DNA of 64,000 nt from Candidatus Saccharimonadia bacterium (GTDB taxonomy: Bacteria > Patescibacteriota > SICC01), in NCBI GenBank assembly GCA_025449535.1, contig JANWJF010000001.1:741136-805135 (forward strand), in the 5' to 3' direction. Each line of letters opens with the position of its first letter. Position 1 is the first letter of the stretch. Shown here one piece after another: positions 20,307 through 21,942 of the stretch. Both the position numbers and the translations under genes were made by a program. The notes under the pieces are model-generated. The model did no database searches. It had not been told where the DNA came from and saw nothing but the letters and a program-made list of their open reading frames with translations.

Positions 20307-20879
20307 TCAACAGTCGATTTCCTCGCTGTGCCGGAACCAGAGGGGTCCGTCGTACGGATCGGGCAAGCCGGCGTGTTTACGGTCCCTGAAGGATCGCCAG
20401 AACGCGTGGCTGATCTGGTCATACCGTCCACGCAGCCGATCGGCGTCGTCTTTGCAGATGTGGTCGATCAACTGGGGCAGCTTGGTGAGCAGCAACGTGG
20501 GATACGCCCAGGCAGGCAAGGCTTCGATGCAGAAACCGGCCTTGGTATTTCCCTTGTCGAGCCGTTCCGCGCAGTAGCGCCGCTGGCGCTCGGGCGTCCA
20601 CGGCCGATTGAGACAGGCCTGATCGACGCCGTAGGTGCGGCTCGCACCGGGCGCGTAGCTCCGATCAGGCGGCAGGCATGAGTCGAGCCTCGCCTCACGG
20701 ACGAACCGTTGCAGGCTCAGCGGCGAAGGTGCGGCGCGTGCCGCTGCCGACGAATCGGCTCTTAAGGGTCCCGCGAGGACGGCGATGGCCACGAAGGCCA
20801 GGAAGCCGAGCACCGCCATCATCGCCAGCACCTCGATGAATCCGGGGCGGTCCTTGCGGATTGATCTCGGACGGCTCAT
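20307..20879 (-). CDS. type IV pilin-like protein, paralog A (class III signal peptide-like N-terminus)
   Basis: MSRPRSIRKDRPG|FIEV then hydrophobic helix; Cys-containing C-terminal domain; RBS AAGGAGAG. Confidence 0.6.
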   Translation of the reverse strand: MSRPRSIRKDRPGFIEVLAMMAVLGFLAFVAIAVLAGPLRADSSAAARAAPSPLSLQRFVREARLDSCLPPDRSYAPGASRTYGVDQACLNRPWTPERQRRYCAERLDKGNTKAGFCIEALPAWAYPTLLLTKLPQLIDHICKDDADRLRGRYDQISHAFWRSFRDRKHAGLPDPYDGPLWFRHSEEIDC

Positions 20880-20885
20880 GGGTTT

Positions 20886-20946
20886 CTCTCCTTACTGCTT
20901 CAGCACGGGATTGCACTGAAGGCCGACTGGCGGCGCGGAGCGTCCG
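20886..20946 (-). promoter_or_regulatory. conserved 5'UTR element of pilin-like paralog A, with hairpin CTTCAG...CTGAAG (20898-20921) next to the RBS
   Basis: About 85% nucleotide identity to the equivalent region at 21719-21779, while the downstream coding regions have diverged. Confidence 0.5.
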
Positions 20947-21115
20947 AGCGTGTCGGCCGCCCGGCGCCGCCAGCGGGGATGTCAAAGGGCGAGCCTGAAA
21001 TACTACCATTCGCTCGGACTTTTGCAATGGAACATGCGGGGCCGTTTTTCGCGCTACTACCAAGAAAGCGCTTGATTAGCTGATAGGCTAATGCAAGCGC
21101 GTCTTGGGTAGGGGA

Positions 21116-21712
21116 TTAGCTGTCCGGAGTTGGCGGTACGGGGACCGGCGGTACCGGACAGGCCGGTTCGGCGTGGGAGCGGCTCGGCAGGATCGGTGGT
21201 TGTTCCAGTCCTGCCTCGACCCGTTTTTCGACCTCGAGGGCGTATTCGTCGATCTGGCGGCTCATCCGGTTTTCCAGTTCCGTGAGTTCCCGGAACTCAT
21301 CGCCTTCGAGCGTGGGTCCGAAGCCGTCGCACCATTTGTCCGCCGTGTGTTCGATCGCTCCGTAGCGGGCGAACGCCAGCGACCACCCGTGTCCGCGGGC
21401 GACGCAGGCTGCCCGCATTTCCTGGGCGTCGGGTTCCCAGAACGAAAGCTCGTCTCTGTTAGGGATTTCCCGGGTGCAGTAGCGCGTTAGTTGTGGCTGG
21501 CGGAAATCGCGTTGCAGGCAGCCGTCTTCATCGGGAACCTTGCTGCAGTAGTCCTGCTTGGCGGCCTGCACGAACGCCGTCTTGTCCGGCGGGTCGTCAC
21601 GGAGGGCGTCAGCAAGCGCAATGCTTCCCGCGATGATGATCCCCAATATCAGCACCAGCCCTATCTCGGTGAATCCGGACTGGTCATTCCGGAGGGAGCG
21701 CACGCGGCTCAT
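21116..21712 (-). CDS. type IV pilin-like protein, paralog B
   Basis: MSRVRSLRNDQSG|FTEIGLVLILGIIIAG; shared Cys pattern CL.R...Q..RYC.RE with paralog A; RBS AAGGAGAAAG. Confidence 0.6.
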   Translation of the reverse strand: MSRVRSLRNDQSGFTEIGLVLILGIIIAGSIALADALRDDPPDKTAFVQAAKQDYCSKVPDEDGCLQRDFRQPQLTRYCTREIPNRDELSFWEPDAQEMRAACVARGHGWSLAFARYGAIEHTADKWCDGFGPTLEGDEFRELTELENRMSRQIDEYALEVEKRVEAGLEQPPILPSRSHAEPACPVPPVPVPPTPDS

Positions 21713-21718
21713 GGACTT

Positions 21719-21779
21719 TCTCCTTGCTGCTTCTGCGCGGTATTGCGCTGAAGGCCGACCGGCGGCGCGGAACGGTCGA
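21719..21779 (-). promoter_or_regulatory. conserved 5'UTR element of pilin-like paralog B
   Basis: Second copy of the ~61-nt element: tctccttgctgcttctgcgcggtattgcgctgaaggccgaccggcggcgcgga. Confidence 0.5.
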
Positions 21780-21942
21780 ATATCCGACCGCTGCGTGCCG
21801 CCAACCGACGTGTAAAAGGACAACTGAAGAATGGTAACACATGCCCATTAGCACTGGGGCCATTTCAAACTTATGCACCAGGCATCAACCTCAACTGTCT
21901 TTGCTACAATGTGGATATTACGAGGGGGCAGTAAGGAGTCTT

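Follow-up and report, generated by a model that had tools for sequence, protein, structure and literature searches.

Why would two neighbouring genes that have diverged strongly in their coding sequences keep almost the same untranslated leader? This question is raised by a locus in a 65%-GC metagenome-assembled genome of a Candidatus Saccharimonadia bacterium (Patescibacteria), where two minus-strand genes, here referred to as A (21116-21712, 198 amino acids) and B (20307-20879, 190 amino acids), lie in tandem. All coordinates refer to the 64-kb stretch of contig JANWJF010000001.1 that was analysed, hereafter the window. An original prediction, made from the DNA sequence, described A and B as divergent pilin-like paralogs with a common cis-regulatory RNA in their 5' untranslated regions (UTRs). 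Our data suggest, with moderate confidence, that the leader is a lineage-specific structured 5' UTR module, shared by A, B and a third unit, C, which is kept by selection and which in A and B has also been subject to concerted evolution.

Leader and coding sequences of genes A and B

Gene A encodes a six-cysteine protein, predicted to be exported, with a signal or anchor helix, an all-helical domain and a Pro-rich tail, and gene B encodes its paralog. Both open reading frames (ORFs) are present as originally described, with the N-termini MSRVRSLRNDQSGFTEIGLVLILGIIIAG (A) and MSRPRSIRKDRPGFIEVLAMMAVLGFLAF (B). The BLASTP alignment of the two proteins is limited to the first 34 residues (41% identity), and codon alignment gives 45% nucleotide and 30% amino acid identity; past the N-terminus these values are 42% and 26%, with 38% identity at third positions. 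A profile of the B family matched A with P=3.8e-4 over 147 columns; all six cysteines line up in this comparison, in agreement with the C-terminal cysteine pattern noted earlier, together with the motifs FV..A..D.C, RYC and AGL. Judged from these alignments, A and B are true paralogs over their full length, old and, as the original prediction had it, strongly diverged.

A repeat search returned exactly the previously described similarity upstream of the two ribosome-binding sites (RBSs), 20887-20947 versus 21719-21779, 61 nt with 85% identity, and BLASTN within the window gave 53 nt at 88.7% (E=3e-11). The similarity of the two leaders is clearly far beyond chance, and the divergence across the unit is not uniform, with 75-85% identity in the leader versus 42-45% in the coding part.

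Each unit is built in the order extended -10 promoter, a conserved box at about +1 to +20 (the +1 box), hairpin P1, hairpin P2 (A and B only), Shine-Dalgarno sequence and coding sequence, all on the minus strand. In A, the promoter TGTTACCAT (21831-21839), which like that of B is supported by motif enrichment and by its position 5' of gene starts, is followed by the +1 box CAGTTGTCCTTTTACA (21811-21826), containing CCUUU, which resembles the 16S anti-Shine-Dalgarno sequence. Folding and alignment place P1 of A at 21754-21809, comprising a core (21760-21803) and a basal extension, and P2, CUUCAGCGC-AAUACC-GCGCAGAAG with an A.A mismatch, at 21730-21753, ending 4 nt before AAGGAG (21720-21725). 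The corresponding elements of B are the promoter TGGTAGTAT (21000-21008), the +1 box CAGGCUCGCCCUUUGACA (20980-20997, from the alignment of upstream regions), P1 (20926-20974, from folding, alignment and an inverted repeat), P2, CUUCAGUGC-AAUCCC-GUGCUGAAG with two G.U pairs (20898-20921), and AAGGAG (20888-20893).

The whole intergenic region is kept in L009, a locus of a related genome that carries the B homolog P0005, a protein of only ~42-45% identity. The terminator ahead of the leader is retained in L009 with compensatory changes, and the promoter (TGCTAATAT), the +1 box and the Shine-Dalgarno sequence are retained too; P1 has the apical GGAUAU seen in A, and P2 has the AAUCCC loop seen in B. 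In two further related loci, L007 and L008, the promoter, a CCUU(U) motif and P2 at 4-5 nt from the Shine-Dalgarno sequence are kept. Leader and coding identities are 75% and 45% for A-B, 66% and 41% for A-L009, and 62% and 57% for B-L009, while third codon positions are 35-49% identical across the same pairs. That a non-coding leader can still be aligned while synonymous sites are saturated implies that the leader is under constraint. The core of the original prediction, selective conservation of the leader, thus stands, and on balance the leader appears to be kept by purifying selection as an RNA structure, beyond what holds for the coding sequence.

Secondary structure of the leader

P1 is a long imperfect GC-rich hairpin of ~20-25 bp with arms ~26 nt apart, and P2 is a 9-bp hairpin located 4-5 nt upstream of the Shine-Dalgarno sequence. 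The latter is the hairpin (CTTCAG...CTGAAG) that had been pointed out next to the Shine-Dalgarno sequence, and it is present in both A and B. The competing GC-rich stems that had also been proposed were not borne out, since GGCCGAC/GTCGGCC occurs in B and has no such counterpart at the same positions in A and L009, and since the second stem, TGGCGGCGC/GCGCCGCCA, is merely the base of the long nested hairpin P1. The conserved CGGCC that follows P1 pairs with sequence preceding P1 as a basal extension.

All leaders fold more stably than their dinucleotide shuffles (z = -2.8 to -4.5). RNAalifold, applied to A, B, C and L009, recovered both hairpins, and at four pairs both sides had changed. A hand-checked structure for A, B and L009 has standard pairs in 92.9% of its 84 pair cells, compared with 29-53% when the partners are slid, and five pairs are changed on both sides, which was reached by one of 500 shuffles. 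Considering P2 in five leaders, 91% of the cells are paired and CG<->UA, GC<->AU and CG<->GC exchanges are seen. Compensatory substitutions, the subject of a check suggested earlier for related loci, are accordingly found in both helices. Moreover, 10 G.U versus 2 A.C cells in the table for A, B and L009 favour the sense (transcribed) strand, while sense and antisense folding energies are similar. A model, R2, that was built without C and L008 detected both of these leaders, with scores of 36.8 bits for C and 23.3 bits for L008, and returned nothing else in 420 kb (the 64-kb window and 350 kb of control loci). The leader is therefore likely to form an RNA structure comprising P1 and P2, as predicted from these comparisons. 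A kissing interaction between the loops of P1 and P2 was considered and rejected; GGAU:AUCC is possible by eye in A and L009 and not in B.

The leader does not resemble any element known to us from the databases searched. At gathering thresholds, no Rfam 15 family matched in the locus, and at E<=10 the matches were restricted to miRNA, snoRNA and small-RNA families with 14-21 bits (E 0.3-7), far below the thresholds. A scan for the exact pattern CGGCCNTCNNNGCAATNCCG in contig collections that evidently lack the source genome gave no match in viral contigs and a single match in metagenome contigs (L010 3678-3708), which lies inside a MoeA-like gene and which we regard as chance, for it coincides with the codons of the conserved FGLPGNPVS motif. 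The same coincidence is probably behind the 47 matches in genome contigs (L011-L057), all from unrelated phyla and all scoring at most 18.6 bits with R2. A REP- or MITE-like repeat was rejected on the ground that models R1 and R2 give no further copy in the window. Likewise, the leader is not an N-terminal coding extension or an upstream ORF; an in-frame TTG exists for A, but B and L009 have single-nucleotide indels that disrupt the frame, and the leader substitutions have no bias towards synonymous changes.

Mosaic identity of the A and B copies

Conservation is not the whole explanation for the likeness of A and B. In the 5' half of the leader (the 5' half of P1) A and B are 59% identical, versus 69-71% to L009, whereas in the 3' half (from the P1 3' arm to the Shine-Dalgarno sequence) they are 83% identical, versus 67-72% to L009. 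Over the first ~35 codons, the amino acid identity is 46% for A-B and 27% for B-L009; leader and N-terminus are, in other words, closer between the paralogs than between the B genes of two genomes. Along the A-B alignment, the identity is 40-47% in the background, 83-87% in the leader 3' half, 60-70% in the first 25 codons and 42% in the rest. The P2 stem common to A and B (CUUCAG) is likewise derived, L007, L008 and L009 all having CCUCGCCGC. Together, promoter, leader and signal peptide are far more similar than the mature coding part and carry signs of recombination.

We suggest that the two copies would have been partly homogenised, by concerted evolution or gene conversion, from the P1 3' arm through the first ~20 codons, and this would account for a leader identity of 85-89% on a coding background of 42-45%. 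Part of the very high A-B identity would then reflect concerted evolution of the 5' module and not constraint alone. Most simply, the duplication would be old, the leader would be under purifying selection, and its 3' part, together with the signal sequence, would later have been covered by a conversion tract.

Some information on the age of the duplication comes from L009, where the region upstream of the B homolog (350-480) has a short open stretch that ends in RPTCPPPSVPPPPTRQDA and a stop, like the Pro-rich C-terminus of A. This stretch (PTCPPPSVPPPPT, versus PACPVPPVPVPPT in A) precedes the conserved terminator, and it may be the remnant of a deleted A-like gene. If real, this A-like 3' end implies that the duplication is older than the divergence of the two lineages. 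In L009, a divergent and apparently leaderless gene begins at ~305 on the other strand.

Transcription units, promoters and terminators

Aligning the upstream regions exposed the third unit, C, just downstream of B (20094-20213, minus strand), which has a -10 element TGGTAAGAT (20205-20213), a +1 box (20185-20200), P1 (20118-20174) and an ATG at 20094-20096, and is without P2. The base of its P1 extends to 20109-20181, with CUCCUUU pairing with the Shine-Dalgarno sequence. Unit C heads a string of tiny ORFs (19296-20096, minus strand) of 25, 31, 77, 36 and 61 amino acids, most of which are single hydrophobic helices and which appear to be translationally coupled. The 25-aa ORF (ATG at 20096) has the strongest Shine-Dalgarno sequence of the string and is not called in public annotations. 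The 61-aa protein (19296-19481, minus strand) exists in two versions in the population, the NCBI and Logan assemblies carrying P0019 and the JGI assembly P0020. In L007, ORFs of 34, 42 and 57 amino acids (2034-2482) lie behind a promoter with the same +1 box.

Intrinsic terminators follow A (21062-21100, minus strand; a 13-bp hairpin of -18.7 kcal/mol, then UUUCUU) and B (20243-20281, minus strand; -20.4 kcal/mol, then UUUCUUU), with hairpin z-scores of -3.5 and -4.5, respectively. With their own predicted promoters, and with terminators after A and B, the three are independent units. A generic sigma-70 and terminator scanner misses these promoters and terminators; a -35 box is absent and the terminator loops are longer than 8 nt.

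The promoter motif TGnTAnnAT occurs 10 times in the window (4.45 expected), and nine of the ten matches lie just 5' of a same-strand start codon, at distances of 1-32 nt, or 100-115 nt for A, B and C. Other sites are at 16830-16838 (+), 18122-18130 (-), 21902-21910 (+), 34650-34658 (-), 43852-43860 (+) and 58219-58227 (+). TGnTAnnAT without a recognisable -35 box thus seems to be the general promoter of this genome. Four matches fall within 15 nt of the start codon, and matches at 1-15 nt imply many leaderless or very short-leadered mRNAs. Given start sites predicted from the -10 motif, the leaders of A, B and C (about 100-115 nt) appear exceptional for this genome.

The +1 box (consensus CAGyTGyCCyTTnACA) is present at each of the seven promoters in the set, even at an L007 promoter with neither P1 nor P2 behind it; in the relatives, the box lies at 1993-2010 and 2577-2592 in L007 and at 516-532 in L009. 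Read from the sequences, the box has a weak TGT-N6-ACA symmetry. This symmetry, and its presence at the L007 unit without hairpins, mean that the box could be a DNA operator rather than a part of the RNA element.

Alternative explanations for the leader

Four alternatives to a structured module kept by selection were weighed. The one that survives best, although we consider it rather unlikely, is that the leader is the binding platform of a trans-acting factor (RNA-binding protein or small RNA) encoded in the genome, through which A, B and C are co-regulated. Each leader would then co-evolve with the factor, giving rise to the likeness of paralogs within a genome, and such co-evolution would produce the same mosaic pattern as described above, with a leader 3' half closer between A and B than to L009. 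This idea is in line with unpaired nucleotides that the window and L009 have in common (AAUNCC in the P2 loop, CGGCC in the linker and GCAG ahead of the Shine-Dalgarno sequence) and with the +1 box at every promoter of the set, that of the hairpin-less L007 unit included. However, the P2 loops differ in L007 (ACAC) and L008 (CCUGCC), no candidate factor was found, the divergent 353-aa neighbour being without a recognisable domain, and gene conversion is a simpler account of the within-genome similarity.

Similarity at the DNA level without an RNA function, due to a recent conversion tract, a duplicated promoter cassette or P1 acting as a palindromic operator, is in our view improbable. Recombination is indicated by the mosaic identity and by the derived P2 stem common to A and B, and the similar folding energies of the two strands and the symmetry of the +1 box are in keeping with a DNA-level element. 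Against this, the leader is still 62-66% identical to that of L009 when third codon positions, at 35-49%, are saturated, and the excess of G.U over A.C cells points to the transcribed strand. Moreover, compensatory changes in the two arms occur within the genome (G-C to A-U in C; U-A to C-G between A and B), which is unexpected for half-sites of one protein, and the distance between the P1 arms is atypical for an operator.

A riboregulator switch, in which an anti-Shine-Dalgarno-like CCUU(U), either in the +1 box or at the base of P2, alternates between the Shine-Dalgarno sequence and another partner, is equally improbable. It would mean temperature- or signal-dependent translation. Every leader does have a CCUU or CCUUU near its 5' end that resembles the 16S tail CCUCCUUUCU, and the minimum-energy fold of A has a CCUU:AAGG helix at 25 C or below. 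In unit C, CUCCUUU at the base of P1 pairs with AAAGGAG with a probability of 0.99 (0.61 +/- 0.20 in shuffles), and C is the only leader in which the Shine-Dalgarno sequence is sequestered. In contrast, the pairing probability of the Shine-Dalgarno sequence equals that of upstream-shuffled controls in four of the six leaders (B, L009, L007 and L008) and is marginally higher in A, and the predicted partners differ from leader to leader. The energies required to open the RBS are 7.9 (A), 7.0 (B) and 9.0 (C) kcal/mol, with a median of 8.5 for 37 genes of the window; those of A and B are thus at or below the median. Sequestration by the +1 box is therefore unsupported (apart from C and, marginally, A), and we reject Shine-Dalgarno occlusion of the thermosensor type, accessibility being ordinary and the partners inconsistent. 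A terminator-type attenuator is rejected too; the sequences after P1 (GGUCGGCC) and P2 (CAGCAAGG) have no U-run, unlike the terminators after A and B, and the GGCCGAC/GTCGGCC alternative is restricted to B. Nor did Rfam, thermometer families included, give a match at threshold. Of the cis-regulatory RNA proposed originally, the part that holds is a conserved leader folded with compensatory changes, while the thermosensor and attenuator readings are unsupported.

That A and B are type IV pilin-like, with a class III signal carrying Glu at +3 and processed by a prepilin peptidase, is very improbable on the evidence given in the following section.

Nature of the A and B proteins

In both proteins, the N-terminus is short and basic and is followed by Gly-Phe, with an acidic residue close by, and then by a hydrophobic helix, which is what had made them look pilin-like, and one account (PMC11623550) describes type IV pili as conserved in Patescibacteria. 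Our data do not bear out the pilin assignment. Neither protein matched PF07963 N_methyl (Pfam, E<=0.1) or TIGR02532 (NCBIfam, E<=1). Read directly, the residues concerned are G-F-T-E-I-G in A and G-F-I-E-V-L in B; the Glu is at +3, position +5 has no Glu, and neither sequence fits G-[FYLIVM]-[ST]-[LT]-[LIVP]-E. The N-terminus with its G|F.E motif (MSR..R.D..GF.E) is absent from all three B homologs, which start with MKKLLSGFTWRDRAIVG (P0003), MPKNIGPVRIGMILIALALAGSLLGC (P0004, with a lipobox-like LLGC, as in a lipoprotein-type signal) and MRKRPKFTRGNLFGIL (P0005); it occurs only in the converted module of the source genome.

AlphaFold models of A and B, based on a five-sequence alignment (pLDDT 72 and 68), have a membrane helix and, after it, five or six further helices but no sheet, and compared with the PDB they gave no pilin match. 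AxA-type sites resembling those of signal peptidase I follow the hydrophobic helix in both proteins, and among the window proteins scanned there is no prepilin peptidase (PilD) or pilus assembly gene. From sequence and model, A and B are small, all-helical six-cysteine proteins, predicted to be exported or membrane-anchored, and not pilins. They share with type IV pilins the features listed above and differ in a motif that is off the family profile and not conserved in homologs, in the all-alpha fold and in having one lipoprotein-like homolog. For annotation, the lesson is that a basic N-terminus, G-F-x-E and a helix are insufficient to call a pilin.

Genomic setting and distribution

The A/B locus is inside an island of ~9 kb (16829-25997) that splits the str operon between rpsG and fusA, and its third-position GC content is lower than that of the flanking ribosomal genes. 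The island also encodes a Bax1-I protein and a His_Phos_1 protein, and a patch with 47% GC carries genes for a DpdB/DndB-like DGQHR protein (24594-25676; PADLOC DpdB 2.4e-19) and a DUF2188/PDC-S16 protein (25708-25950). In L008, the B homolog likewise adjoins rpsG, with a gene for a ParE-like toxin and a NUDIX gene alongside.

The product of gene A is identical in sequence to HEY8108557.1, and a protein database search detected no homolog of it outside the source genome. The B family has four known members, B, P0003, P0004 and P0005; four were found in 5.8 billion clusters and two representatives in 1.84 billion, and viral contigs had no relatives. B is 42-50% identical to the other three in full MAFFT alignments and 45-49% in local BLASTP alignments. 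This tiny distribution limits any general importance.

The lineage as such is very sparsely sampled. EF-Tu is a singleton when clustered at 90% identity, the 90% clusters built on the products of adjacent genes include nothing from another genome, and those of S12 and S7 hold a few relatives, whose contigs (L058-L060) end before the island and are without the leader. Within the source population, 20000-21900 is identical in six of six assemblies.

Elsewhere in the window, the 16S rRNA gene is followed by unusually long spacers (60776-63163), tRNA-Ile (61954) coming after ~1.2 kb and tRNA-Ala (63163) after a further ~1.1 kb; the first of these spacers has an ORF (61131-61976).

Discussion

Our data are best accounted for by a module that would consist of a housekeeping-type extended -10 promoter, the +1 to +20 box and an unusually long structured 5' UTR. 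The hairpins would act post-transcriptionally, on mRNA stability, on translation initiation or on both; being self-contained, they would leave the RBS accessible, with P2 at a fixed short distance from the Shine-Dalgarno sequence. The role would be that of a stabiliser, a translation insulator or a platform for a trans-acting factor, P1 could with its length be a substrate for RNase III, and the outcome would be coordinated expression of envelope proteins. That unit C and its L007 equivalent encode single-helix micro-proteins suggests that the module serves envelope proteins generally.

Several points weigh against this interpretation. The comparison covers six leaders from four genomes, three of them paralogs in one genome; the covariation statistics are weak and not independent of phylogeny, and P1 is absent from the more distant L007 and L008. 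Similar folding energies of the sense and antisense strands leave room for a palindrome at the DNA level, and gene conversion alone could yield part of the A-B identity. Transcription start sites are predicted from the -10 motif only, and the predicted start leaves ~17-25 nt single-stranded 5' of P1, unlike in classical 5'-terminal stabilisers. The regulatory effect is one that we infer from sequence, and the ordinary accessibility of the Shine-Dalgarno sequence is compatible with a leader that does little. With these points taken into account, we consider that the leader is probably a new and very narrowly distributed gene-control element, new as a motif and of a familiar kind.

Among known systems, the 5' UTR of Escherichia coli ompA and 5' stem-loops of Gram-positive bacteria stabilise mRNAs, the classical ones being located at the extreme 5' end. 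By analogy, stabilisers of the ompA type may be closest to the leader in function; common features are a leader of ~110-130 nt with two hairpins and an accessible RBS behind them, gene products that are exported or belong to the envelope, the lack of a U-tract and a Shine-Dalgarno sequence that is not occluded. The leader differs in having unpaired nucleotides before P1 and in lacking sequence or covariance-model similarity to any curated family. RNA thermometers (ROSE, fourU) are likewise 5' UTRs with several hairpins, in which pyrimidine stretches can pair with AGGA, and unit C buries its Shine-Dalgarno sequence in the base of P1; in A and B, however, the Shine-Dalgarno sequences lie outside the hairpins and are as accessible as in other genes, and the locus has no Rfam family at threshold.

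In evolutionary terms, the closest analogue, though not homologous to the A/B system, is provided by the erp or 'upstream homology box' lipoprotein genes of Borrelia, where a common promoter, operator and leader-peptide module precedes divergent mature domains (PMC10016077). In both cases, a module of promoter, leader and signal peptide is retained by paralogs whose mature parts differ widely, the products are exported, the genes evolve by recombination, and, by analogy, expression may be co-ordinated. Here, in contrast, conservation falls mainly on a transcribed 5' UTR that forms hairpins instead of on DNA operators, and there are two or three copies in a chromosomal tandem, not on prophage plasmids.

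A more far-reaching idea would be that the leader is an undescribed riboregulator of a sparsely sampled high-GC lineage of Patescibacteria, read by a lineage-specific trans-acting factor or responding to a host-contact signal, that switches on a small regulon of surface proteins, with the homogenised promoter, leader and signal-peptide cassette also being a recombination handle for diversifying surface proteins. We regard this as speculative and unlikely.

In a literature search we found no description of native cis-regulatory RNAs in Patescibacteria, and a recent perspective mentions riboswitches only as imported tools (PMC11665869). The locus offers a concrete candidate, three adjacent units for predicted exported or membrane proteins with leaders of 100-115 nt in a window where the other predicted promoters lie 1-32 nt from the start codon. 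If functional, the leader would provide a handle on how envelope proteins are co-ordinated in an ultrasmall and probably host-dependent bacterium, and it might serve as a natural expression element for genetic tools.

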